Assembly: GCA_000004695.1 (NCBI GenBank)
Contig: CM000152.2
Location: 3,904,001 to 3,968,000 of the forward strand
From: Dictyostelium discoideum
Lineage: Eukaryota
Reading direction: 5' to 3'
Length of the DNA: 64,000 nt
The notes beneath the pieces are model-generated. The model did no database searches, was not told where the DNA came from, and saw only the letters and a program-made list of their open reading frames with translations. Below, in pieces: positions 17-56,946 of the stretch. Numbering within the stretch: position 1 is the first letter of the stretch; each line of letters begins with the position of its first letter. The translations under genes were made by a program, and so were the position numbers.

Positions 17-2218
<2,202 letters not shown>

Positions 2219-5325: not shown

Positions 5326-5796
5326 TATTTATATATACACTTTTATCAATTTTGTATGATGATGATGGTGATGATGAAATAGATATTTTAATTAAATTAT
5401 CTGATTGTTTTTTTTTTAAAAAAAAAAATAAAAAAAATGGAATTTATTAGCCAAAATTTAATTTTTTTGGAAAAAATAAATTTAGTAAAAGAGGATTGTT
5501 AAATTTACCTAAAATAGACATTGTTTTATTTATTCTTTGTTTTTTATTAATTTAAATTGTTTTTTATTTTTTATTTTGTTTTTATGTTTATTTTTTTTTA
5601 TTTTTTTTTTTTTTGTTTTTTTAATTTATTAAATTTTTTATAAATATTTTTATTTTTTTTTTTTTTTTTTTTTTTTTTTATTATTTTTAAATCTTTAAGG
5701 TTATTTCAAGTTAATAAAATAAAAAAATTATAAAAAATAAAAAAATAATTTTGTGATTTTATGAAAATTAATTAAAAAAATATCATTTTTTTTTTT

Positions 5797-5833
<37 letters not shown>

Positions 5834-6148
5834 TGTTCAGAAAAAAAAACATAGGGTATTATTGCCCTTTTGAGTTATAATTTTTATTAATAAATTTTTT
5901 TTTTTTTTTTTTAATCACTTTTTTTTTTTTTTGATAGAACACACTAAAACAGTTTGATTTTCCATATAAATAAAACTGTGTGGTTGTTGTTGTCAACAGA
6001 AAAATTATATCAATTTAAAAATATTTGTGTTTTTTATTTGGTGTTTAAAGATATTTCTATTTAACGTCTATCAAAAAAAAAAAAAAAAAAAAAAATAAAA
6101 TAAAATAAAATAAAATAAAATAAAATAAAAATAAAAATAAAACAAAAG

Positions 6149-6195
<47 letters not shown>

Positions 6196-6558
6196 AACAA
6201 AAGTAAGAAACTCATAAAAAGGATGATTTATAAATCAGCACTCAGATTATGTCACATGTATTCATCACCACCCAAATTCTCGTTTTTAACCAACAATTAA
6301 TAATTAAAACAAATACTACATTCCGTATTTAGTAATGTGATAAAAGTGTGTTTCAAAAAATCATCACTAACGAACACACAAAAAAAAAAAAAAAAAAAAA
6401 AAATGAAATAATTAAAAAATAAATAAAAACAAATAATAATAATTAAAATAATAAATACTTAAATTAAATAATATTAAATAATTAAAAAATTAAATTAAAC
6501 AGTTTTTTTTTTTTTTTTTTTGTTTGTTGGAGTTTGAAAAAAACAAGTAATATTTATT

Positions 6559-6589
<31 letters not shown>

Positions 6590-7178
6590 CTATTATTTTG
6601 AAAAATTGTTATTAATAATAATTATGATTTAAAAGGAACTAATATTTTTTTTTATATGAAATGTTTTTTTTTTTTATTATTATTATCATTATTTGTTCAT
6701 CAAAATGATTAAACCATCAATGCAAAGTAGCATTGAATTAGATTTATATTTGATATCTTATAATAAATCCATGAAAATAATTAGTAAAGATAATCTTATA
6801 TTAATTAATTTTGTTTTTATATATATATATTATTTTTTGATAAGTGATTTTGATTTCCTTTTTTAAAATAATAAAAATAGTAATATTATTAATAATAATA
6901 ATAATAAAAATAATAATAATAAGAATTAAAACAATGTTGTTAAATAATATAAGTCATAAATTTTAATTTTTTTTTTTTTTTAAAAAAAAAAAAAACAAAA
7001 CAAAAAGATAAATAATTTTATTTTTTGATTTTTTATGTTTATTTTATTTTTTGATTTTATTTTTTGTGTTTATTTTATTTACCAAAATTTAAAAAAATAA
7101 AAATAATAATATTAATTAATTCTTATTTTTTTAATTAAATTTAATCAAAATCTAATTTTAGATGAAGCGCTCAATTGA

Positions 7179-7231
<53 letters not shown>

Positions 7232-8109
7232 TCAATTTTGCTTCACAAATTAAAAAAATAAAATCTTTGATTATTGGTTGTGAATTTCAATTAGTAAGGC
7301 AAAATCAAAATTAATCATTAAGTGAAAATACCAATAATATCTCGAAAAAAAAAAAAAAAGACCACACAATAGTGTGTGAAAATTAAATATATAAATTATT
7401 TTATTAAAAGAAAAATATGCATATAGGGTGAATTTATTGTTATATATTTTTTTATTAATTAGAATACTAGCACATATTAGTGCATGGATAAAAATCATTT
7501 CTAACAAAAAAAAAAAAAAATAATAAAAAAAAATAAAATAAAATTGTTATTTTTGCTTATGTTGTTGTTGTTGTGTTTTTGTTGTTGGTTATACCAATTA
7601 TTGATTTTATTTTAATTTTTTTTTTTTTTTTTTTTTTATTTTTTTTTTAGTATGGGGTTATATATATAAAGTGTGGTTTCTTTTTGATTTTAAAGCGAGA
7701 TAACGTTCTTATCGAGTTGTTCTATTTTTAAAAAAAAAAAAAAAATTAAAAAAATTTAATAGTTAAAAATAAAAATATAAATTGGAAAAATAAAAGAAAA
7801 AATGATGAGCCCCTAAAAAATCTCTATTGAATTTACAGAATTCAATCATTGATTTTATTTTTGGTTTATTTTTAAATATTACATAAAAAAAAAAAAAAAA
7901 AAAAATATATAAAAATATAAAAATAAAAAAATAAAAATAGGTTGTAAATTAATTGATTTGATTGTTAATACCACTCATAGTATTTTTATTATTTTTATTA
8001 TTTTTATTTTTTTTATTTTACAATTTTACTTTACTTTTTTTTTTTTAAAATTTTATTTTTTCCTTCTCATATTTCTGTGAGGAAATAGACCAATTAATTA
8101 TTTGAATTT

Positions 8110-8146
<37 letters not shown>

Positions 8147-8206
8147 GGAATTGAATTTTGGTGGTGTGTGGGATATGTTTAAATAATCACAGATCTGGCC
8201 AATTTT

Positions 8207-8248
<42 letters not shown>

Positions 8249-8529
8249 CTTTCCAACTTTTTTTTTTTTTTTTTTTTTATTTTTTTTTTATTTTATTTTA
8301 TTTTTATTTTTATTTTTTTTTTTTTTATCGTCACGCAACTGATTCATTCATTTTTGTATATATTTTCCTGTTTTAATATTGATTTATTTATTTGTTCATT
8401 TATTTCGCCATATATTTATTTATTTATTATTTATTTATTTATTTATTTAAAAGATAACATCTTATTTGTATATATTAAAAAAAAAAAAAAAAAAAAAATT
8501 AATTAAAAAAAAAAAATAATAATAATAAT

Positions 8530-8564
<35 letters not shown>

Positions 8565-8676
8565 AAAGAAAAATATAAAAATAATAATAATAAATTTATT
8601 TGTACATATATAAAAAAAAAAAAAAAAATATCAACAAAAAAAAAAAAAAAAAAAAAAAAAAAACTACAATAATAAT

Positions 8677-10050
8677 ATGGCAGATAAACAAGGATTTTTA
8701 ATTAAAGAAGGTGGATCAATTAAAACATGGAAAAAGAGATGGTGTGTTTTAAAAAATAATTCAATTTTCTATTCAAAGAATGCAAGTAGTGGTGAATTAG
8801 GAATTATTCATTTAAAGGGAGTAAGTTCAATTAGTATTAGCTCAAGAAAGAAAAAGAATTGTTTTGAAATAGCAACACCTGAAAGAACCTATTTTATGAA
8901 GGCACCATCAACTGAAGAGATGAAAGAATGGATAGAGATTATAACTCAACAATTAAATAAACTTAAAGAATCTACAACAAGATCCAATAGTATGGGACAA
9001 AGTGATAACAATTTAAGACTATCTTCTAGTGGTGGTGGTGGATCAACACAACAACGTATATCAGTTGAAGATTTTGATTTATTAAAAGTTATTGGTAAAG
9101 GTAGTTTTGGTAAAGTTATGCAAGTTAGAAAGAAAGATAATGATAGAATTTATGCAATGAAGGTGTTGAATAAGAATAACATTATAGAGAGAAAAGAGGT
9201 TGATCATACGAGATCAGAGAAAAATATCCTACAAAAGTTGGTTCATCCATTCTTGGTGAACTTAAATTACAGTTTCCAAACCAACGATAAACTCTACTTT
9301 ATAATGGATTATATAAATGGTGGTGAGCTATTCTTTCACCTGCAAAACGAAGAGAAATTCGATGAAATTCGTGTGAAATTTTATTGTGCAGAAATAGTTT
9401 GTGGACTGGAGTATCTCCATAATTGCGGCATTATATATCGTGACCTCAAGCCAGAGAACATTCTACTAACAAGCGATGGACATATAGTATTGACCGATTT
9501 TGGTATAAGCAAGGAGGGTCTGGTGTCCGATAACGACCGTACGGCAACATTTTGTGGCACACCCGAGTATTTAGCTCCAGAGGTGCTCTTGGGCAAGGGC
9601 TATGGTAAGGCTGTGGATTGGTGGAGTTTTGGAACGTTGGTGTATGAGATGTTGTCTGGTTTACCACCATTCTACTCTCAAGACGTTAGGGAGATGTATC
9701 AAAAAATCATGAATGAAGATTTGAAATTCACACCACAATTCTCACCAGATGCAAGAGATTTCATAACTTAACTATTGGAAAGAGATCCAAATAAACGTTT
9801 AAGAGATATAAAAGTTGTTAAATCACATCCATTCTTCAAAGGTATCGATTGGGATAAATGCGTAAAAAAAGAATTAACTCCACCTTTCATCCCACCTGTA
9901 ACTGGTGGTAAAAATGATACAAGTCAAATCGATTCTGGTTTCTTAATTGAAACTGCAAAATTATCATTAGATCCAACAACACTAAGTAGTTCAATGCAAA
10001 AGAACTTCGAAGGTTTTACATTTGTAAATGTAAATGAACATTTAAATTAA
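8677..10050 (+). CDS. PKB/Akt-like AGC protein kinase with N-terminal PH domain; frame interrupted by a single in-frame TAA at 9769-9771 (possible pseudogene, strain allele or sequencing error)
   Basis: PH-domain-like N-terminus (GFLIKEGGSIKTWKKRWCVLK). Kinase motifs GKGSFGKV, YRDLKPEN, DFG, and activation loop TATFCGTPEYLAPE. ORF 8677-9771 and ORF 9775-10050 are in the same frame, separated only by TAA; there are no splice signals. The downstream ORF carries LLERDPNKRL and the hydrophobic motif FEGFTFVN. Confidence 0.75.
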
Positions 10051-10148
10051 TAAATAATAATAAATAATAAATAATAAAAAAATAAAAAAAATAAAAAAAA
10101 TAATTTTGTATTATAATAATTAAATTATTTGTTTATTTATTTTTATTT

Positions 10149-11176
10149 TTAATTTAAATTAACTTTAATTAATGATTCTAAACAAGCTCTACCACCTTCA
10201 ATTTCTAATTTAACTTTTGTATTATTATCTAAGAAAGCTTGAGTGACACGATTTGCTAAAATGATTGTAGAAGAAGCAGCTTTAATTGGTTGTTTTGAAC
10301 GTGTTGCTAAATGATATAATTGGAAAGTTTCCATTTCCAAGGTGTTTACTTTATTCTCATATAGATCAATGATATTTTCAATTAATTGTTCATTGAAATC
10401 ATCAAATTCTGGGTCGATTCTACCTTGACTACTATAGAATGAATCGGCTGATGCATTAATACCAACGACTGTTTTTCTATCTTTGAAAATTGATTCAAAG
10501 TCATTCTTTAATAAATCGATCAACTCTTTATCACCTGCAACTGGTTTTGAAATGTCATATGGTTTGCATTTAGTTTGATCTTTATTATTATCAGAGTGCC
10601 AGAAATCTGGATTTCTACGAATTAAAATCGATGATTCTGCAATTGCCAATGAACCAACTTCAACATCTTTAATAGAGCCACATGTACCATATCTAATGAT
10701 TGCCATTGGTCCATCTACAACAAATCTACCCTCTCTAACTAAAAAGTCCATCATTGGTGTACCCATACCAATTGATACAATTGATACTCTAACTCCCTTA
10801 TATTTACCAGTATGAATTACAAATCCTCTATGTGCTTTTTCTTCTTCAACTTCTTCTAATAATTCTTTTGTAAGTCTTGATGCACGTTCTGAATCTCCAA
10901 CTGTTAAAATTCTTTGTGATACTTTTTTTTAAAAAAAAAATAACAAATAAAAAATAAATAATTATTAATTAATTAATTAATTAATTAATAAATAAAAAAA
11001 TAAAAAAAAAATTTTAAAATAATAATAATAATGATTGTGAGAGAGAGAAAAAAAATAAAAAAAAATAAAAAAAACTTACATTCCCCTTTTGCAACACCTA
11101 AATGATATACAGCATTTCTTTCATCAACTGGGAAATTTGCATTTTTAGCATCGCCTAATTTTTTTACTTCTGTCAT
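10149..11176 (-). CDS. uridine phosphorylase / PNP-UDP family nucleoside phosphorylase, 2 exons: complement(join(10149..10921,11080..11176))
   Basis: Exon 1 is MTEVKKLGDAKNANFPVDERNAVYHLGVAKGE, followed by a GTAAGT donor at 11079. Acceptor is A-run+AG at 10922-23. Exon 2 continues LSQRILTVGDSERASRL...GMGTPMMDFLVRE, typical of the PNP_UDP_1 fold. Frame bookkeeping is consistent (97 nt + 773 nt). Confidence 0.75.
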
Positions 11177-12235
11177 TTTAATTTTAGTTTTATAAATGTA
11201 ATGTTATTTTATATGTATATTACAATATTAGTATTTTTTTTTTTTTTTTGAAAAAGTGATTTTTTTTTTAAAAAATTTTTTTTTTTTAAAATGCATTTTG
11301 CAGAAAAAAATTAAATTAAATTGAATTAAATTGAAAAAAAAAAAATCAAAAAAAAATCAAAAAAAAAAAATCTTTATTTATTCTTCAAATTTAATTGAAA
11401 AAAAAAAAAAAGAATGGAACCTCTTGGAAGCTGAAATTATTTATTTGGAATTATTCAATTCTAATCACTTTGTTTTAAAATATTTTAAATAGCAAAAATA
11501 ATATATAAATAAATATATATATATATATAAAATAAAATAAAATATTTATTAATATACATAATATATTATATATATATATTTTATTTTATATATTTTTTTT
11601 TATATATATATTAATAAATATATTTTTTTTTTGAAAAAATTCTTTTTTTAGTTTTTTATTTTCAAAACACAAAATTTGAACTTAATTTTTGATATTGAAA
11701 CTAAAAAAGGAAAAAAATAAAATAAAATAAAAAAACTTTGAACCAAAAAAAAGACGCGTCCAGAATAAAAAACAAATTCCAAAAAAAAAAAATAAAAAAA
11801 AATAAAAAATAATTTAAATCAGTTTAGATTATTCTTTTGGATAAAAAAAATTTGAAATCCCCTTATCGAATTTTTTTTAAATTTAGAAAGAACGAAATTT
11901 CCTTTTTTTTTTTTTTTTTTTGCCTGGGAAATATAATCGAATCTATTTTTAAATTTTTTTTTAAAATTAAGAAAATAAAATTGTTAATTTAAAAAAAACA
12001 TAATTATGGGAAAAGATATATTTTTGGTGATTATTTATTATTTATTTTAAAAAAAGTTTAATTAAACATAATTAGATTTTAAAAAAAAAAAAAAAATAAA
12101 ATGAAAATTTTATTTTTTTTTTATTTTTTTATTTTTTTTTTTTTTTTATTGGAATTTTATTTTTTTTTTCTATTTTTTTATTTTTTTTCTACTTTTTTTT
12201 TTTTTTTTGTTAAAATACCAATAAAAAAAAAAAGA

Positions 12236-12351
12236 ATGGAAGAAACTAATACAAGATGTTCTATTTGTTTGTCAGATATTGAGAATCAAACAAAAAATAA
12301 TCAATGTAATCATATATATTGGTAGGTTTCATTTAGTTTTTTTTTAATAAA

Positions 12352-12383
<32 letters not shown>

Positions 12384-13144
12384 ATTAATATTATTAAATA
12401 TTAAATATATAATATAATATTTTATTTTTTTATATAGTTTTGATTGTATATTTAATTGGGTAAAAAGTAATGATTCTTGCCCATTATGTAAAGTAAAGAT
12501 TAAAGAATTAATAAATAATGATAATGAAATTATTAAAGTTGAAGAACCAAAGAAACCAGCACCAGAGAATGTTGAAGCTGATATTAGTTGTTTAGATAAC
12601 AAATTCTTTTTAGAAGAAGTTGAAAAGTTATTATCAATTTCACATAGTATAGTATTACAAATGGAAGGATTAATGACATCACATAAAAAAGTGTACGTTA
12701 CACCAACAATGACAACTGAAGATACCAACAGATTGAATCAAATCACTGATAGATTATATATACTTCAAAAGGATTTAGAAAATTATGAAAATGCATTCGA
12801 CCCTGAAGATTTATTATCAACATTATACATTTACGAAACCACTTTAACAGATCTTAAAAATATTTATTTATCAGAATTTTTAAATAATAATAATTTAAAT
12901 GGTAATAATTATAGTAATAGAAATAGAAATAAATATAAACAAAATCATACTACTAGTGGAGATATAAGAGGTGGTTATACTAATTACAATGATGATGACT
13001 ATGAATCTGATGAATATGAAGATGAAGATTATTATGAAATTCAAGATCAAATTTATAATAAATCTAATAATAATAGTGGTGGTGGTAATGGTAATGTTAG
13101 TAGAAATTCAAAATTAAATAATAGTAATAATAATAATTTAAATT

Positions 13145-14546: not shown

Positions 14547-16423
<1,877 letters not shown>

Positions 16424-19505: not shown

Positions 19506-20871
19506 ATGGATACTCATCAATCATTTAATGAAAATCAACATCCAAATTTTAATAGTGGTAATCATGGAGGTATTAATATGAATAGATTTCAAAGATTTTC
19601 AAAACCAACAATTTCACCAATTCAACAACAACAACAACCACAACCACAACAACCATCATCAATTATACAAAGACAATCAATCATTATGACACAACCACAA
19701 CCACAACCACAACCACAAATGATACCAATATTTAGAGAACCAAATGAATGGTATAAATTAATTGATATGGAAATGAATAAATTTAATAATGAGTCAAGAC
19801 CATCACCTGAATATATAAAATATTTAACTCAATTATTTCAACAGGCTTTAGATAGTCTTGAACATAAAAATACACCCGAATTTTATTTATTCTTATTAAA
19901 TCGTGCAACTTTTCAAAGGTAATTTTATATTAAAACTTTTTTTTTTTTTCTTTTAAAATACATGATACTAACTGAAAACTTTTTTTTTTTATTTCATTCA
20001 TCATGGATTATATTAATCACTCACACATTCACATACACACACATATATATATTATATATATATATATATACTATTAGTAAAATCGGAGAGAATGAAGATG
20101 CAAAAGGAACATTAAAATATATGAAAGTATTAAAGATGGAAAGTTTTGAAGTATTTGTATTATTATCAGAGATTGAATCGAAATCTTTTAGATTTTCAAA
20201 GGCAAGATCAATTATTAATAGAGGTATTCAAAAGATTCCCTCAAGGAGTAAAGAATTTGAGGGATTTTTAATGGTTATAGATATTCAAGAGGATGAATTT
20301 TCAAGAAATGGTTGTATTATTAGTAATAATAATAATATAAGTTTTAATAATGGTGATGTAAATAATAATAGTATAATAATGAATGAAAATGATCAACCAA
20401 TGGTAATTAATCTTAATCCACAGCAGCAACAACAACAACAACAACAACCATATGAAATATCATCATCATCATCATTGATGAGTACACCAGCATCCTCTAG
20501 ACATTTATCTAATAGATCATCAATAGTTCCAACACCAAATAGTTCAACAAAACTCTCTGAATCAATTAAAACAATTGGTTTAAGATCTGTACAACCCAGA
20601 AGAGTTATTCATAAACAAACTACTACAAATTTTAATACCACCACTACTACTATACCTGAAAATAGTTATGATGATGATGCTGATCAACCAATGGATCATG
20701 ATGGTAATAATAATAATAATTTTAGAATACATTCGAACAACAATAATAATAGTAGTGCAAATAGTAGTTATAATAAAAGTGAAAATGATGAAGATGATCA
20801 AGATGAAGAAGATGAAGAAGAAGAAGATGAAGATGAGGATGATGATGAAGAAGATGAAGAAGAGTATGAAG

Positions 20872-20951
<80 letters not shown>

Positions 20952-21104
20952 TATTTTAAATACAATCGACAACAATACATTTTAAATAATGATAGTGATA
21001 CTAGTACAAACCCAAATTCACCAGCATCTTCAAACTCTTCTGTTAACGATATCATTAACAGTATTTCAATTACTGATGATTCTAAATTAGATTATGAAAA
21101 TAAT

Positions 21105-21189
<85 letters not shown>

Positions 21190-21459
21190 ATATACAACAA
21201 CAACAACAACAACAACCAAAAATACACCCACAAAGATTTTCACTTCAAAATAATACACCAACAACAACTACAACAACAACAGCAGCAACAAATGTACAGA
21301 ACCCTTCATCATCATCATCATATATTTCACCTCCTTTATCTTCTCAATCATCAGAACTCCAACATCAAAGAAGACACTCTATTCAAGCTCAAAGAGCAAA
21401 TAAACCTCCTGTTATTCCTCCACCTTCAAAATTACATCAAAATAATTTACAACAGCAGC

Positions 21460-21513
<54 letters not shown>

Positions 21514-21568
21514 TACTTTTACAACAACAAGCTTTATTACAACAACAGCAGCAACAACAAATTTTATT

Positions 21569-21620
<52 letters not shown>

Positions 21621-22616
21621 AAACAACAAGAACAACAATTAAAAAAAACAAATATGCAACCACCGCCACCAAAGCAACCTCAACCTCAAACCCAAACTCA
21701 ACAACAACAAAAAAATATTAATAATTCAGAAATTGTTGATAAAGAAAAATCATTTGAAGTTGCAAAAAGTTGGAGTGAAGTTGCAATGGTAAATGGTAAA
21801 CCATATTTAAGAATTGAATTTATAGGAAAAGGTGGTAGTGGTAAAGTTTATAAGGTATTAAGTGGTGATTTAAAAATCTATGCATTGAAATATGTTTGTT
21901 TATCAGATCCAAATGAGATTGAAGCACAATTGAATGAAATTGAAATGTTGAAACGTTTAAGAAAACAGGTTAATATCATTCAATTGATAGACTATGAAGT
22001 TAATATGGCAAAGAATTATATATTGTTAGTGTTGGAATTTGGTGAGATCGATCTATCAAAACTTTTACAAAGATTGCAAACTCCGAATGGAACCAATGTG
22101 AATTTCATACGTATCTATTGGCAGCAAATGTTGCAGGCTGTGCACACCATCCACGAGGAGAAGATCATTCATGGTGATTTGAAACCCGCAAATTTCGTCT
22201 CGGTTCAGGGTAGTTTAAAATTAATTGATTTCGGTATTGCCAAAGCCATCCAATCCGATGATACTACCAATATCGTTAGAGAGAGTCAAATTGGTACAAT
22301 CAATTATATCTCACCCGAGGCTTTAATCGATACTTCACAAGGTGGTCCAAAGCAGTGTATGAAGTTAGGAAGAGCAAGTGATATTTGGTCTTTGGGTTGT
22401 ATACTCTATGAGATGGCTTTTGGTTATCCACCTTTTAAAAGTTTTTCAAATATAATCTCAAAATATCAAGCTATCATTAATCCTCATCATAAAATTGAAT
22501 TTCCAGTTCATCCAAATGAAAATTTATTAAAAGTTTTAAAACTTTGTTTAATTAGGAATCCTCATGAAAGACCAACAATTCCAACTTTATTAAATCATGA
22601 TTTTTTAAAAATTTAA
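19506..22616 (+). CDS. mps1: Mps1/TTK dual-specificity spindle-checkpoint kinase, 2 exons: join(19506..19918,20078..22616)
   Basis: GTAATT donor at 19919 and tattAG acceptor at 20076-77. N-terminal helical region, then a long Q/N-rich linker. C-terminal kinase has GKGGSGKVYKV, HGDLKPANF, DFG and the Mps1-type GTINYISPEAL. Confidence 0.8.
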
Positions 22617-22680: not shown

Positions 22681-23709
22681 TTAATTTAATTTTATAACAA
22701 TTTTACCAAATGAACCTCTTGATAAATGTTGAAATGCTTTAATTGAATCATCAAAATCATAAATTGTATCAATTACTGGTTTAAAGATGAAATTTGTTGA
22801 TAATTGATTAATCATTTCTTGGAAAGAATCTTTTGGTGAAACTCCAATACCATGTAGGTTAATTCTTTTAAAGAGAGCATCAAAAAGGTTGATTTTAGCA
22901 TTTGATTCTTTTAAAAATCCAATCATATAGATATGACCATGTGTATGACTACAACGTATTGATCTATTTATATAATCACCACCAACTACATCAAGTACAT
23001 GATTTACACCTTGATCATTTGTTAATTTCATAACTTCTTTCTCCCATTCATTATGGGTTTTATAATTTATAACATGAGTGGCACCCATTTTTAATAATCT
23101 TTCTTTTTTTTCTTCATTACTTGTTAAAAGTATAGTTTTTGCACCAATTGAATGTGATATTTGAAGAGCGAATAATGAGACACCGCCAGTGCCTTGAATT
23201 AAAACAGTTTGATTTGATTTTAATTTTGATTCAATTCCACCGACATTCATTAACGAATACCACGCTGTACATGCTGCAATGGGTAATGTTGAGCATTCTT
23301 CATCTGTGTAATGTTTTGGTGGTATTAAACATGAGTTTTCATCAAGAATAATGTATTTTGCTAAACCGCCATTTAACGGACCACCATAACTGAATTGTTC
23401 TTCATTACTTTTCGCTTCACCTTCCATCCAGTGAGATAAGAAATGATTTACAACTCTATCACCAACTTTAAATTTCTTTACATTTTTTCCAACTTTTTCA
23501 ATTATGCCACAAGTATCAGATACTGGTATTAAACCTTTTTCAAATTTAATACCATAGGTTCCATCCATTATTGCTTTATCTCTATAGTTTAATGAAACTG
23601 CTGATACTTTAACCAATACTTGATCATCATTAATATGTGGAACTGAAATTTCATCCATTTTCATACCATAGGTACCATCAAAACTATGAATTCTCCATGC
23701 CTTCATCAT
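22681..23709 (-). CDS. zinc-type medium-chain dehydrogenase/reductase (alcohol dehydrogenase / quinone oxidoreductase-like), single exon
   Basis: 342-aa ORF with the GroES-like N-domain (KVSAVSLNYRDKAIMDG) and Rossmann motif LIQGTGGVSLFALQI. Confidence 0.8.
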   Translation of the reverse strand: MMKAWRIHSFDGTYGMKMDEISVPHINDDQVLVKVSAVSLNYRDKAIMDGTYGIKFEKGLIPVSDTCGIIEKVGKNVKKFKVGDRVVNHFLSHWMEGEAKSNEEQFSYGGPLNGGLAKYIILDENSCLIPPKHYTDEECSTLPIAACTAWYSLMNVGGIESKLKSNQTVLIQGTGGVSLFALQISHSIGAKTILLTSNEEKKERLLKMGATHVINYKTHNEWEKEVMKLTNDQGVNHVLDVVGGDYINRSIRCSHTHGHIYMIGFLKESNAKINLFDALFKRINLHGIGVSPKDSFQEMINQLSTNFIFKPVIDTIYDFDDSIKAFQHLSRGSFGKIVIKLN

Positions 23710-40291: not shown

Positions 40292-42934
40292 ATGAAGATT
40301 TTTCAAATTCAATGCTCATCTTTCAAGGAAAGTAGATGGCAAAAAAGTAAATGTGACAATTGTTTAAAATTTCATATAGACATCAATAACAATAGTAAAA
40401 CCTCAAATACAGATACAGACTTTGACGCCAATACAAATATAAATTCAAACATAAACTCAAATATAAATTCAAATATAAATATAAATAATAGCGGAAACAA
40501 TAATAAAAACAGTAATAATATAGAAATTACTGAAAATATTGATAATAAAGCGAAAATAATCAATAAACATATAAAAACTATAACAAATTCAAAACCAATA
40601 CCAATACCAATACCAACACCAACACCAATAAGTATAAAAGAAAAAGAAAAAGAAAAAGAAAAAGAAAAAGAAAAAGAAAAAGAAAAAGAAAAAGAAAAAG
40701 AAAAAGAAATGAAATCAACAATTAATTTACGTTCAGAGGATACAACATCAAATAAATCAACTATAGTTTTTACAGAATGTTTAGAATATAAAGGTCATCA
40801 ATGGAGACCAAATATATGTGTAACATGTTTTTCACCAAAGAATAAACATAAAAATGTTTTACCAGAAACTAGTACACCATTGATTTCACAATCATCCCAA
40901 ACATCAACTATAACACCATCATCCTCTTCAACCTCTACATCTACTTCATCAATTTCTACACATAAAACTGCAAATAATAAAACTGTAATCACTTATATCT
41001 CTTCAACAACTACAACTACAACAACTTCATCATCATCATCATCACCACCATCTTCATCAATTGCTGGTATCACAAATCCAACCTCAAGATCATCTTCACC
41101 AATACTAAAATCAGTACCACCCTCAGCTTATTCAAATGTTGTTATTCCAATTAATAATATCAATAATAGTAATAGCAATAGCAGTAGTGGTGGTGGTAAT
41201 AATAATAATAAATCAATTTCAACACCATCATCACCAATTATATCAAGACCAATAACAAATAAAATTAATAATAATAATAATAATAATCAACCACAATTAC
41301 ATTATAATCAACCACAAAGTTCAAGTGTTTCAACAACATCATCACCAATAATTAGACCAGTATTGAGAAGACAATTTCAATCATTCCCATCGAATCCAAA
41401 AATTTCAAAAGCAATATTAGAACAATGTAATATCATTAATAATAATAGCAATAGCAATAATAGCAATAATAAGGACCCAGTAATACTTTGTAAATATACA
41501 ATAGAATCACAACCAAAGAGTAATATATCGGTTTTAAAACCAACTTTGGTTGAATTTATAAATCAACCCGATAGTAAAGATGATGAATCATCAGTAAAAT
41601 CACCACCATTACCAGTGGAGTCACAACCAATATTCAATTCAAAACAAAGTGCAACAATGGATGGAATTACCACTCATAAATCAGTATCGATTACGATTTC
41701 CACATCGACATCACCATCTTCAACAACCACAACCACATCAACTACCACTTCAATTATAGCAGAAGAACCATCGAGTCCAATATTACCAACTGCATCACCA
41801 TCCTCCTCTTCTTCATCGATAATTACAACCGCAACTGCTTCAACAATACCAATGTCACCTTCATTACCATCAATACCATTTCATGAGTTTGAAACAATGG
41901 AATCCTCTACCACAACAACTTTATTATCAGAAAATAATGGTGGTGGTGGAGGCAGTAGTTGTAATGATAATAGTAGAAGAAATAGTTTGAATATCTTACC
42001 ATTAAGATTAAAATCATTCTCATTTTCTGCTCCACAATCTGATTCAATGATTGAACAACCAGAAGATGATCCATTTTTTGATTTTGAAGATTTATCAGAT
42101 GATGATGATAGTAATGATAATGATGATGAAGAATTAAAAGAAATAAATGGTGAAAAAATAATACAACAAAATGATCTCACTCCAACTACTACAATAACCT
42201 CAACTACAACAATTTTACAAAGTCCAACACTCGAAAAAACTTTATCAACTACAACAACTACAACTATACCATCACCATCAACAAATTCAAGGTCTATTTG
42301 TAATACTTTAATGGATAGTACAGATTCGATTAATAATACAAATACAAATACAAATACAAATACAAATACAAATACAAATACAAATACAAATACAAATACA
42401 AATACAAATACAAATGCAAATATTAATAATAAAGTATCGACTACAACTACAACCACAACAACTAAGAGGAGATCATTAAAGATGGATCAATTTAAAGAGA
42501 AAGAGGATGAATGGGATCAAGGTGTTGATTTAACATCATTTTTAAAGAGAAAACCAACATTACAAAGAGATTTCAGTTATTGTAATAATAAAGTAATGGA
42601 AATTTCAAGTGTAAAAGAAGAAGCCAAACGGTTACATGGTGGTACTGGATATATTCATCAATTTGCATTTGAAGCATTTAAAGATATTTTAGAGGCAAAA
42701 CAAACTCAAATCAATAGAGCTTTTTGTTCTCAAAAAATTGATGCTCCAGATTGTGAAATGTTAATAAATGAAATTAACACTGCAAAGAAATTATTGGAAG
42801 ATTTATTAGAATTAAATAGTAATAGTAGTGGTAGTGGTAATAATAGTAATGATAATAGCGGTTCCTCATCACCTTCTTCTTCAAAAACAAATACTTTAAA
42901 TCAACAATCAATTTGTATAAAGAGTGAAATTTAA
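40292..42934 (+). CDS. Ser/Thr/Asn-rich hypothetical protein (880 aa) with duplicated N-terminal Cys/Trp motif and a conserved-looking C-terminal domain
   Basis: Single long ORF. The N-terminus holds two copies of F-x2-C-x2-[FY]-K-x3-W-x4-C-x2-C-x4-5-H (CSSFKESRWQKSKCDNCLKFH and CLEYKGHQWRPNICVTCFSPKNKH). (GAAAAA)n encodes (KE)n and (CAAATA)n encodes (NT)n. The non-repetitive C-terminus runs ~120 aa (KMDQFKEKEDEWDQGVDLTSFLKRK...LEDLLELN). Confidence 0.65.
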   Translation: MKIFQIQCSSFKESRWQKSKCDNCLKFHIDINNNSKTSNTDTDFDANTNINSNINSNINSNININNSGNNNKNSNNIEITENIDNKAKIINKHIKTITNSKPIPIPIPTPTPISIKEKEKEKEKEKEKEKEKEKEKEKEMKSTINLRSEDTTSNKSTIVFTECLEYKGHQWRPNICVTCFSPKNKHKNVLPETSTPLISQSSQTSTITPSSSSTSTSTSSISTHKTANNKTVITYISSTTTTTTTSSSSSSPPSSSIAGITNPTSRSSSPILKSVPPSAYSNVVIPINNINNSNSNSSSGGGNNNNKSISTPSSPIISRPITNKINNNNNNNQPQLHYNQPQSSSVSTTSSPIIRPVLRRQFQSFPSNPKISKAILEQCNIINNNSNSNNSNNKDPVILCKYTIESQPKSNISVLKPTLVEFINQPDSKDDESSVKSPPLPVESQPIFNSKQSATMDGITTHKSVSITISTSTSPSSTTTTTSTTTSIIAEEPSSPILPTASPSSSSSSIITTATASTIPMSPSLPSIPFHEFETMESSTTTTLLSENNGGGGGSSCNDNSRRNSLNILPLRLKSFSFSAPQSDSMIEQPEDDPFFDFEDLSDDDDSNDNDDEELKEINGEKIIQQNDLTPTTTITSTTTILQSPTLEKTLSTTTTTTIPSPSTNSRSICNTLMDSTDSINNTNTNTNTNTNTNTNTNTNTNTNTNTNANINNKVSTTTTTTTTKRRSLKMDQFKEKEDEWDQGVDLTSFLKRKPTLQRDFSYCNNKVMEISSVKEEAKRLHGGTGYIHQFAFEAFKDILEAKQTQINRAFCSQKIDAPDCEMLINEINTAKKLLEDLLELNSNSSGSGNNSNDNSGSSSPSSSKTNTLNQQSICIKSEI
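42336..42415. repeat. (CAAATA)n in CDS encoding (NT)n; (GAAAAA)n at 40635-40710 encoding (KE)n
   Basis: Direct reading of the sequence. Confidence 0.9.
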
Positions 42935-44489: not shown

Positions 44490-46782
44490 TAAATGTATTT
44501 TAGAAGATAAACTAAATGATTTTTTAAATTTAAAATATATTTTAAATAAAATTAAAATTTTATCATATTGTGAAGAATTTGGAGAGAAATATTATGCAAG
44601 TTCAGTTTATCAATCAATATTTATAGAATTAATTGAAAAGGATAAAATTAAAATTATTGAAAAAATTATTAAAAATTTATTTCAATTAGGTATTGGTAGA
44701 TATGATATTATGAATATTAAAGATAAATTATTTTGGGATAAAATTTTATCAAACATTATAGCAAATTTAATATTTTTTAATGAAAATGTTTTATCAACAA
44801 TTTCTATAAATAGTAATAGTAATAATAATAATAATACTATAAAAGAAAAATATAATAAAATAATTCAAATTTTTAAAGAATGTTTAAAAAATTCACCAAA
44901 TAAAGATTTAAATGAATTTGTAATATCAAAATTATTAACATTATATTTAAAAGGTTCATCATCATCAATAAATTCAGAAAAATTTTATTCAATGGCAATT
45001 AGATGGTCAATAGTTTCATTAAATTCATTAGAAATATCACCTTTAATAATTTATCACCATTTTTGGATATTTCATAAAAATTATAAAGTCGAATCAAATT
45101 TAATTAAAACTTCAAATTTCCAATATTGGGATACACTTTTACAAAGATATGAATTATTAACATTAGATCATCATGATAATTATGAATCCAATTTAAATTT
45201 CCAAATTGAAAAACAAAAAATTAAAAATAAAATTGAAAATGAATTCTTTCAAGAAAATAATAATAATTATAATAATAATCCAATTGAATTAATTAATCAA
45301 ATTAAAATTAATGTTAAAAATAATTTTATATCACAAATTTTTAATGAAAATAATAATAATAATAGTAATTATAATAATAATAATGAAGAAATTGATAAAT
45401 TAATTGAAAATAAAGAAATTGATAAATTAATTGAAAAATTTAGTAATGAACAATTTAAATTAATAGAAATTTCAAAAGGTGATTTTATAATTAAATTATC
45501 TGAATGTATTAGAAGAGAAGATCCAATTAAACATTGTAAATGGGTTATGGAATGTGTACCAAAAACAATGACACCACTATTGATTTATATGAATAGTTAT
45601 GAATTGGTAATGTATGATATTGAAAAAGGTATTGAAATTTTAATGGGTAAACAGGTTTCATCAAAAAAAGCATTATTTAAATATTCAGAAATTCATGATC
45701 CAAAATTTAAAATTTCAGTCACAATTGGTTTATTAAAAATTAATCAATTCAATTTGGCAAGTCAAGTTTTAAGTTCATTATTATCTGAATTATATTTTAG
45801 ACCAATAAAGAAACTATTATCAGAAAGAACCACCCCAACATCAACAAAATCAGATTACCATTTAAAATACTCTGAAATCATATCCATATTAAATCAAACT
45901 AAATATTTTAATTCCTTTTTTAATAAATTCATAATAAATTCAAATTATTATAATTATTCAAAAGAATTAAAATTATTACAAAATAGGAAATTTTGTAAAT
46001 TAAATGATTTTAATTTTAATTTTATTGTAAAAATTCAAGAAGCAATTAAAAATATTAATTCAAATAGTGTGGGTAGTGAAAAAGAAATTTCTATTAATGA
46101 ATTAGTACCATTACCAATTTTGAATTTAATATTGTCAAATAAGTTTAAATCTGTCGGGAAATCAATGGGTGCAAAATCATTTTATGAATCTATGATTGTA
46201 AAGGACGAAATTACATTGGATATCGGGTTGGAGATATTATCAAAACGTTATCCAATACCACCAATTGAAAATATTTACCATTGGGAGAGTATAAAGAATG
46301 ATTATATTAATTTGGGTATTCCAGTAGACCATTTTCATAATTCATTATTAAGAATTTTAAAAAAAAATAATAATTATGAAAATAATAATAATTTAAGTAT
46401 AATTAAAACTTTATATGAAAATAATGTATTCAAAATTTATAATTTATCACAAGATTCCTTATTAATTTTATTAGAATCTTATTTCGATCCTATTAATCCA
46501 AGCAAATCAACTAAAAGAGATAATGATATGGTTTTTCAAATATTTCAACAGTATAGGTCAACTGATAGCCTTAATAATTCATTAGTAAATTATTTAATTC
46601 AATTTAATAATATTATTGGAAATGATGAAATTTATCAATTTTTAAAGAAAATTAATAATTTTAAAATAATTAATGATGATAGACCAATTCCACAATATTC
46701 AAATTCTTTAAGTAAAAATACAATTTCATATCTTGAATTAATAATAAATGATGATATTATTATAAAAATAAATAATAATTAA
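44101..46782 (+). CDS. large helical-repeat hypothetical protein with mitochondrial-presequence-like N-terminus, 2 exons: join(44101..44393,44484..46782)
   Basis: N-terminus MMNRVTKFTTILNNSYKLSLSRCNSNYKLYSTT is basic/hydroxylated and non-acidic. GTAAGT donor at 44394. The only frame-compatible acceptor is A-run+AG at 44482-83 (90-nt intron), and it joins to the 690-aa ORF whose frame is open upstream of its first Met. An alternative start at 44017 lies inside a poly-T tract and is unlikely. Confidence 0.5.
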
Positions 46783-47370: not shown

Positions 47371-51510
<4,140 letters not shown>

Positions 51511-53130: not shown

Positions 53131-54162
53131 ATGTCAATTATTCCTTTCAGTCCACATAAAGATAGTTTTATTTATGATCATAATAAAAAAGATAAAAAAT
53201 TAAACTTAACTGATGAAGAACTCTCTGAAATAGATTTAGGAAAATTGAGTTTAGAAAATGAACAATTAAAGCAATTAGATAATTCTAATGAAGTTTTACG
53301 TGCCATTTTATGGAATTCAAAAGGAGAAACAAAATCAGGATATGCTGCCTTTAGAAAGTTATTATCTAAAATAATTACAAATGATGTTAATTTTGATCTT
53401 TTCATTACCCAAGAACCATTAAGTGTAGTTAATAAGAATTATATTGATAATTATTTTAATAATGGCTTTGATATAGTTTATCCAGTTAAAAGAAAAGCAA
53501 GAAAGGAAGTTGCAATAATATATAGAAAGGAAAAAATTCAAGTATTGAAAAACGAAAATCCATATTCTCTAATTGAAGAAAGCTTAATTAAGGATAAAAT
53601 TGAATATTCAAATTTCTTTGTCATGAATGGAAAAGGAAGAATTCAAATTACACAGTTTAAAACTCTTACTGAATCACCAACCAATATTTGTGTTTTCAAT
53701 ATTCATTCAGTTTATAGATTCAGTGATAAAGTAAAGGAAGATTTTATTTTAAATTTTTTTAAATTTGTAAAATGGTATATCAATAAAATTTTAAGTCCAA
53801 ATGAAGAGGAATTCAATTTACTTGTGGCTGGTGATTTCAATTATGATATTTATTTAAAAGAGTTTCCAGATTTAGTTTTAAACAAACTTGGATTAAAAAT
53901 TGTTATTCCTTCTCCACCAACTATTGACTCTTCTTATGATGAAAAAGAAATTGCTCCAACATATATAGATTATTTTTTAACAGTCTATGATGATAGAAAT
54001 GGTTTAAAAGTTTGTGATGTCAGTAAATTACCAATAAGATTTGATAACTATCAAGATGAATTTGAAGGAGCTGCAGATTTAAGACAAGATAAAGACCTAT
54101 TGTCCTCTAAAGTTTCAACTCATGATCCACAATATTGTTGTTTAAAAATTAAATCTAAATAG
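53131..54162 (+). CDS. endonuclease/exonuclease/phosphatase (EEP) family protein, 343 aa, single exon
   Basis: EEP catalytic signatures are present in order: ILWNSKG (N-terminal metal ligand), LLVAGDFNYD (GDFN motif) and SKVSTHDP (S-x-H-D-P). Confidence 0.6.
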   Translation: MSIIPFSPHKDSFIYDHNKKDKKLNLTDEELSEIDLGKLSLENEQLKQLDNSNEVLRAILWNSKGETKSGYAAFRKLLSKIITNDVNFDLFITQEPLSVVNKNYIDNYFNNGFDIVYPVKRKARKEVAIIYRKEKIQVLKNENPYSLIEESLIKDKIEYSNFFVMNGKGRIQITQFKTLTESPTNICVFNIHSVYRFSDKVKEDFILNFFKFVKWYINKILSPNEEEFNLLVAGDFNYDIYLKEFPDLVLNKLGLKIVIPSPPTIDSSYDEKEIAPTYIDYFLTVYDDRNGLKVCDVSKLPIRFDNYQDEFEGAADLRQDKDLLSSKVSTHDPQYCCLKIKSK

Positions 54163-55818: not shown

Positions 55819-56318
55819 TTATAATAATGATTCCATAGTTGTTTTAGCATTTATTTCTCTAATATGTTTAACTTGTTTAAAAACCATTATAAATAATTGA
55901 ATTACCATTGTTGAAGCTAATAGAATGTATAAAACCATAATTGGAGTGATTTTACGTTCAACTTGTTTCTCTGGATGCTTATAATATTCTTCTTTATAAA
56001 ATGGATTTTCAGAATTAAATAAAATAGGTGATGCTGAATTTGATGATGGTTGAGAACCAGTAAAAACTTGACTTGGTTGAAAACCTTGAAAATGTTGATT
56101 AGATTGAATATTACCACCTCCCATTGGTATATGGTGATGAGGTGGTATTTGCTTATGAATAACTGGACGACCACCATTTACCAAATTATGATTATGAGGA
56201 GGATGAGGAAAAGGTTGAGGAGTATTACTATTTACTTTTGGTTTATTATTAATAAATGGATTTGGATCTTTTGTAGCTGGTGATGGTATATTATTTCTTA
56301 TATTTTTATTATCATTAA

Positions 56319-56385
<67 letters not shown>

Positions 56386-56946
56386 ATTGTTTTTGTTGAT
56401 ATTATTTACATGATTTGTTTGAACATGCCCTTGGGTATTATGACCACTATGTGGAGCAGCATTTGGACTATGATAATGTGGAGCACCATTGGGACCATGG
56501 TGATGTGGAGCGCCATTTGGACCATGATGATGTGGTGCACCATTGGGACCATGGTGATGTGGTACTCTTTGTTGAGTATGATGTGGTGGGGTTTTTATTA
56601 CATTTTGGGAATTTGGGAAATGTTGTTGTTGTTGTAGTAATTGCTGTTGTGGTTGCTGTTGTTGTTGAATTTTTTGTTGCTGTTGTTGTTGTTCTAATTG
56701 CTTTTGTTGTTGTTGTAATTGTTGTTGTTGTGGTTGTTGTTGTTGTTTTATTTGTTGGTTTGGTTGGTGTTGTTGTTGGTGTTGTTGGTGTTGTTGATGG
56801 TGATGGTGGTGGTGGTGAGGCTGTGTTTGTTGTTGTTTTTGTTTTTGTTGTTGTTGTGGTATTAACTTAGATGGGGTAGTATTTTGACATATAACAATTT
56901 TTAAAATAATAAAAATAATTAAAATAATAAATAATTTATTTTTCAT
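55819..56946 (-). CDS. type-I membrane protein with signal peptide, Gln/His/Pro-rich ectodomain and four HHHGPNGAP repeats, 375 aa
   Basis: Signal peptide MKNKLFIILIIFIILKIVICQ. Repeats PHHHGPNGAPHHHGPNGAPHHHGPNGAPHYHSPNAAP. C-terminal TM ITPIMVLYILLASTMVIQLFIMVF plus short basic tail. Confidence 0.6.

Follow-up and report, generated by a model that had tools for sequence, protein, structure and literature searches.

A recent, lineage-specific stop codon in pkgE, an ancient Akt/PKB paralogue of Dictyostelium discoideum

Introduction

Why does a gene for a PH-domain protein kinase of the Akt/PKB type, whose frame is otherwise open from end to end, carry a single in-frame TAA in kinase subdomain XI in the Dictyostelium discoideum genome, and is this stop an artefact of the data, a peculiarity of expression or the mark of a gene that has died? 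The locus occupies positions 8677–10050 of the window, by which we mean the whole stretch of 64,000 nucleotides that was analysed (GCA_000004695.1, contig CM000152.2, positions 3,904,001–3,968,000 of the forward strand). By sequence match it is identified as pkgE, which is listed in Table S2 of Goldberg et al. 2006 (PLoS Genet 2:e38, PMC1420674) as DDB0215393p, 'Akt2_ps', together with the names PK5, pkfB and DK3. The match extends over the approximately 400 residues shown in that table, where codon 365 is rendered as X; the locus and the position of the disabling codon are the same as in Akt2_ps/pkgE of AX4, and nothing in the sequence shown there is different. The premature stop in pkgE has thus been in the literature since 2006.

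The available parts of PMC1420674 flag akt2_ps as a pseudogene of the AGC/AKT family with its domain rated 'kd', describe it as free of introns next to an akt1 (pkbA) with two, and take akt1 as its likely parent, with a hint of retroposition. Among the 15 kinase pseudogenes treated there, akt2_ps is the only one that comes from a family not unique to Dictyostelium. The same source reports that automated predictions had masked the lesions of kinase pseudogenes by false introns or truncations. Residues 1–100 of PkgE (PH-PkgE) have meanwhile become one of the standard PIP3 reporters of the field (PMC5154761, PMC7614961, PMC6397043 and bioRxiv 10.1101/417923), and the stop is not mentioned in these four reports. 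The present analysis corrects the mutational path, excludes artefacts and places pkgE as a conserved, ancient Akt paralogue that is no retrocopy.

Results and discussion

Reading frame and family assignment

Translation of 8677–10053 in one frame yields 457 sense codons and a single internal TAA at 9769–9771, and the frame is terminated by a double TAA TAA at 10048–10053 (Table 1). In the list of open reading frames the locus appears as 8677–9771 (364 aa) with a continuation to 10050 in the same frame, as an earlier note on this DNA, made from the letters alone, had already held. At the junction the protein reads SPDARDFIT, stop, LLERDPNKRLRD (in longer form SPDARDFIT, stop, LLERDPNKRLRDIKVV), and the 92 sense codons downstream of the TAA are open and in frame, with no second stop or frameshift; the peptides encoded 3' of codon 365 include GIDWDKCVK, NDTSQIDSGFLIETAK and NFEGFTFVNVNEHLN.

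Translation and Pfam searches likewise agree with the earlier reading of the locus as a PH-domain kinase of the Akt/PKB type in which one TAA within subdomain XI parts the catalytic core from the AGC tail. A PH domain is present and all catalytic motifs, from the Gly loop to the activation-loop Thr, are located upstream of the stop, while the AGC tail and the hydrophobic motif, the latter kept in all orthologues as FE[GDN]FT[FY], are encoded only 3' of the TAA and are absent from the predicted 364-aa product. The top matches among solved structures are human AKT2 and AKT1 (PDB 8q61, 9c1w, 3o96), which share the domain order and match over the PH and kinase domains with E of about 1e-107; the human proteins, however, are full length, whereas pkgE is cut at the stop. 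On these sequence features we assign pkgE to the Akt/PKB family by descent, although its predicted product is not a complete member.

Table 1. Features at and around the pkgE locus, in window coordinates.
Feature	Position	Strand	Basis or remark
pkgE (Akt2_ps) reading frame, intronless	8677–10050	+	Translation; match to DDB0215393p
PH domain, aa 4–92	8686–8952	+	Pfam PF00169, E = 1.8e-21
Protein kinase catalytic core, aa 135–363	9079–9765	+	Pfam PF00069, E = 3.7e-70, profile positions 3–240 of 263
Kinase motif GKGSFGKV	9094–9117	+	Motif search
Kinase motif YAMK	9151–9162	+	Motif search
Kinase motif YRDLKPEN	9436–9459	+	Motif search
Kinase motif DFG	9496–9504	+	Motif search
Activation-loop motif TFCGTPEY	9547–9570	+	Motif search
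False in-frame GT..AG 'intron' of 87 nt hiding the stop	9696–9782	+	Annotation of GCA_054883475.1
Premature stop TAA, codon 365; derived base A at 9770, ancestral TCA (Ser)	9769–9771	+	Codon alignment
Stranded 3' part: end of subdomain XI (DPNKRL, 9784–9801) and AGC C-terminal tail	9772–10047	+	Same frame
Codon 378, ATA (Ile); ACA/ACC (Thr) in all six relatives	9808–9810	+	Besides the stop, the sole amino-acid change peculiar to the window lineage
Pkinase_C	9910–10023	+	Pfam, E = 4.2e-8; downstream of the stop
Hydrophobic motif FEGFTF, aa 444–449	10006–10023	+	Motif search; downstream of the stop
PNP_UDP_1 (nucleoside phosphorylase) gene, syntenic marker	10149–10766	-	Pfam PF01048

A reassigned code in which TAA is read as Gln, as in ciliates, was also considered and rejected: TAA occurs within pkgE only at 9769–9771 and at the terminator, so that one internal TAA faces 15 CAA codons, the frame is closed by TAA TAA, and the source is a Dictyostelium. 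Neither TAG nor TGA occurs in the frame. The base composition of the coding sequence (33.5% GC) stands apart from that of the window as a whole (about 20% GC) and of the intergenic DNA (2–13% GC); the region upstream of pkgE (8100–8660) is made up largely of homopolymers of T or A, each about 20–50 bases long, and has about 11% GC.

A genuine stop and a false intron

One objection to the stop, and one of four options left by the earlier note, is a sequencing or assembly error, with a sense codon as the true codon of the strain, and indeed only one base separates TAA from the Ser codon found in the relatives. Yet the site lies outside any homopolymer, and the TAA is common to three independent determinations, namely the window, which matches the 2006 genome sequence, the chromosome-scale assembly GCA_054883475.1, whose coding sequence is identical to that of the window with the TAA included, and AAF21806.1, a GenBank entry of 1999 (UniRef Q9U567, 'rac serine/threonine kinase homolog') with 364 residues, the last of which is the same Thr364. 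Over 7.4 kb, 13 mismatches and 25 gaps set the flanks of GCA_054883475.1 apart from those of the window, so that it represents a separate assembly. Judged by these three sequences, a base-call error at 9769–9771 is excluded, and we attach practically no probability to it. Another objection is that the stop might be spliced out, as the annotation of GCA_054883475.1 in effect proposes: in its protein model KAM9949963.1 (428 aa), 29 residues around the stop are missing, and the model is reproduced exactly when the equivalent of 9696–9782 is deleted from that assembly. The segment does begin with GT and end with AG, and its length of 87 nucleotides is a multiple of three. The previous statement that no GT..AG intron is present had therefore missed an in-frame pair of such ends, but it stands in so far as the pair does not delimit a real intron. 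With 31% GC the segment resembles coding sequence and not the local non-coding DNA (2–11% GC) or Dictyostelium introns in general, given as below 15% GC in PMC1420674. It encodes MYQKIMNEDLKFTPQFSPDARDFIT-LLER, its 29 residues are conserved in every orthologue, an intron at this place is found in none of them, and the spliced product would lack kinase subdomains X–XI. Masking of just this kind is described, in the available parts of PMC1420674, for the 15 kinase pseudogenes including the intronless akt2_ps. Thus, the 428-aa model is a masking artefact, and we hold true splicing of the 87 nucleotides to be exceedingly improbable. The case may serve as an example for annotation, as a nonsense allele that had been flagged in 2006 was masked again by an automated pipeline in a newer assembly.

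Most of the differences between the window and GCA_054883475.1 are gaps in the AT-rich flanks. Compared with the translation of 8677–9768, AAF21806.1 shows three differences near the N-terminus, D3N, R21K and R70K, which might reflect errors of cloning or sequencing, or else a difference between strains.

Ancestral codon and age of the lesion

For comparison at the DNA level, six loci of close relatives were used, those of D. discoideum ACTFIR and ACTFIW, D. cf. discoideum ACTFIY and ACTFIZ, D. citrinum and D. dimigraforme, and the pkgE reading frame was found uninterrupted in all six. In the codon alignment of the window with seven loci, codon 365 is TCA in the four ACTFI assemblies and in D. 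dimigraforme and TCT in D. citrinum, while TAA is confined to the window and GCA_054883475.1. As all six relatives carry Ser at this codon, the lesion is a TCA-to-TAA change, that is, a C-to-A transversion at 9770; the change of CAA or AAA to TAA that had been put forward in the earlier note has to be given up. So has the conserved Gln or Lys on which that proposal was built: beyond the six Ser-bearing relatives, the farther orthologues have Leu (D. purpureum, P. violaceum and C. fasciculata) or Ala (T. lacteum and A. subglobosum), and a Gln is encountered only in the paralogue pkbA. Human AKT2 has Gly, within the helix that contains SLLAGLLKKDPKQRL, from which it follows that the position is variable.

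The pkgE orthologues of D. purpureum, P. violaceum, T. lacteum, A. subglobosum and C. fasciculata are intact as well. A protein search with the joined pkgE sequence returned Dictyostelium proteins at 99% and 93% identity in addition to orthologues from five other dictyostelid genera. With a lesion in conserved subdomain XI that recurs in three determinations, an ancestral sense codon and intact orthologues, we conclude that the stop is real and derived, that it is specific to this lineage and that it arose recently. The situation is akin to that of unitary pseudogenes created by one nonsense mutation, in which a single lesion likewise affects a conserved single-copy orthologue that is intact and constrained in sister taxa. 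A search of public contig collections with the exact 364-aa reading frame, aimed at other isolates that carry it, returned no record.

Estimates by the Nei-Gojobori method gave dN/dS values of 0.014–0.052 between the window and its relatives, and the comparison with ACTFIR alone revealed 33 synonymous and 2 nonsynonymous differences. Only seven changes are unique to the window lineage, comprising five synonymous changes, one missense and the nonsense change itself; under neutrality, the probability of at most two nonsynonymous changes among seven is 0.0047 when 80% of sites are taken as nonsynonymous. The low dN/dS and the small number of nonsynonymous changes imply that pkgE was constrained over most of the branch and died recently, and they demonstrate that the gene was under strong purifying selection until shortly before the stop arose and is otherwise undamaged. 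The missense change replaces Thr378 by Ile (ACA to ATA, base 9809) and lies 13 codons 3' of the stop, which is compatible with relaxed constraint after the lesion, although a single event of this kind is not significant; the lesion is too young for relaxed constraint to have left its mark.

Two assemblies named D. discoideum (ACTFIR and ACTFIW) and one named D. cf. discoideum (ACTFIY) differ from the window with a dS of about 0.13 in pkgE, and their flanks are about 90–93% identical to window positions 5600–13100. Such a divergence looks deeper than expected within one species, and it suggests cryptic species or a loose use of the name. Because the Ser-carrying assemblies filed as D. discoideum are so deeply diverged, they cannot decide whether the stop is species-wide or belongs to the NC4-derived lineage.

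Relation to pkbA

The window sequence is 58.6% identical to pkbA and 77–84% identical to the pkgE orthologues of other genera, and in a bootstrapped neighbour-joining tree of 436 columns the pkgE clade, which includes the window and all dictyostelid groups, received 100% bootstrap support next to a separate pkbA clade with 96%. A search with pkbA retrieved separate pkbA orthologues from D. citrinum, D. purpureum, C. fasciculata, H. album and A. subglobosum. Moreover, the PNP_UDP_1 gene is the neighbour of pkgE in each of the related loci and also in D. purpureum. PkbA (Akt1, DDB0191195) resembles pkgE in its N-terminal PH domain, AGC core, activation-loop TFCGTPEY and C-terminal FEGFT[FY]; unlike pkgE, it belongs to the separate clade, has two introns (PMC1420674), carries Gln where the relatives of pkgE carry Ser, and is intact.

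Taken together, tree, identity and synteny identify pkgE as an old duplicate and not as a recent copy. This departs from the account in PMC1420674, in which pkbA is regarded as the parent, whereas the present data show that the paralogue is old, that its orthologues are intact throughout the dictyostelid groups and that synteny has been preserved. A recent retrocopy of pkbA was rejected on the basis of the 58.6% identity, the 100% support of the pkgE clade and the synteny that reaches out to D. purpureum. Introns are indeed absent, as in a processed pseudogene, since 8677–10050 is continuous, but a recent derivation is not observed, and the loss of introns alone does not make the locus a retrocopy.

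The D. purpureum orthologue (locus L003, 372–1768, from GL871066.1) contains one short AT-rich intron in its 5' part, after about codon 9, which the genes of the D. discoideum group lack; either this group lost it or it was gained elsewhere. In the neighbour-joining tree rooted with Pelomyxa, a weak rooting, the Akt sequences of Mayorella (P0049) and Stygamoeba (P0079) group with the pkgE clade and not with pkbA, which hints at a split of pkbA and pkgE older than Dictyostelia.

Consequences for the gene product

Translation of the window allele would end at residue 364, inside the helix of subdomain XI and before DPNKRL. The predicted product would retain most of the kinase core and, ahead of it, a PH domain able to bind PIP3. 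Missing from it would be approximately the last 23 positions of the fold and the entire AGC tail, with the turn motif and FEGFTF. In AGC kinases the tail orders helix C, and activation of the enzyme through the TORC2 and PDK1 sites needs it; the hydrophobic motif, which is the TORC2 site, docks onto the N-lobe. Given this role of the tail, truncated PkgE should be inactive as a catalyst, and by analogy with other AGC kinases we consider it probably dead. The locus would then be a natural null or, at best, encode a kinase-dead PH-domain protein. In all likelihood, pkgE is therefore an ancient, intronless PH-domain Akt/PKB paralogue that was disabled in the reference or laboratory lineage by the C-to-A change at 9770, which replaced Ser365 with a stop. 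Of the options listed in the earlier note, a recently dead paralogue and a lineage-specific null allele are accordingly the favoured ones. An old and tightly constrained second Akt, kept by all sequenced relatives, would thus have been lost very recently in the reference lineage.

Two further readings leave the stop in place and deny that the locus is dead. Programmed read-through, also raised in the earlier note, would mean that the TAA is translated often enough to yield full-length, functional PkgE. As this would require, the frame stays open over the 92 codons that follow, and these are conserved, but an intact downstream frame is equally expected for a recent lesion. The stop is followed by C, within the codon CUA, and C is the leakiest context at this position, while UAA is the most efficient terminator; beyond this favourable C, the sequence UAA-CUA-UUG fits neither CARYYA nor UGA-CUAG. 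Programmed read-through stops are normally conserved, whereas the stop in pkgE is derived and absent from all 11 orthologues examined. As a literature search on read-through in Dictyostelium yielded speculation only, and a documented case was not found, we consider read-through at this site very improbable. Somewhat less improbable, yet still unlikely, is the expression of the 364-aa product and its retention for a kinase-independent role, either in PIP3 binding or as a dominant negative, in which case the locus would have been remodelled and not killed. In favour of this, the PH domain is undamaged, and its competence for PIP3 binding follows from its use as an expressed reporter (PMC5154761, PMC7614961); moreover, on the window lineage no missense change is found upstream of the stop and a single one downstream. 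These counts, however, are too small to carry weight, since for a single missense change to land in the final 20% of the gene p is about 0.2, and a core cut within subdomain XI would be likely to misfold. The recent loss of a functional kinase, as set out above, remains our preferred explanation.

If pkgE was lost in this manner, the NC4-derived AX strains might constitute a natural knockout of a third PIP3-responsive Akt that is strongly conserved in Dictyostelia (dN/dS of about 0.02) and still works in sibling species and possibly also in wild isolates of D. discoideum. At present we regard this as a tentative proposal that may well prove wrong. Should it be true, models of Akt signalling built on PkbA and PkbR1 in AX strains would miss a component of the wild-type pathway.

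Other features of the window

For six other large open reading frames of the window (14547–15950, 40292–42934, 44710–46782, 47371–48471, 53131–54162 and 55819–56946), Pfam gave no match at E ≤ 1e-5. Another gene for a protein kinase is located at 19962–22616 on the forward strand, where an open reading frame of 884 aa ends in a complete C-terminal Pkinase domain (E = 1.3e-52). The window further contains genes for a protein with F-box and RabGAP-TBC domains (17–2218, reverse strand), a zinc-type alcohol dehydrogenase (22681–23709, reverse strand) and a phospholipase D-like protein (49171–51510, forward strand).
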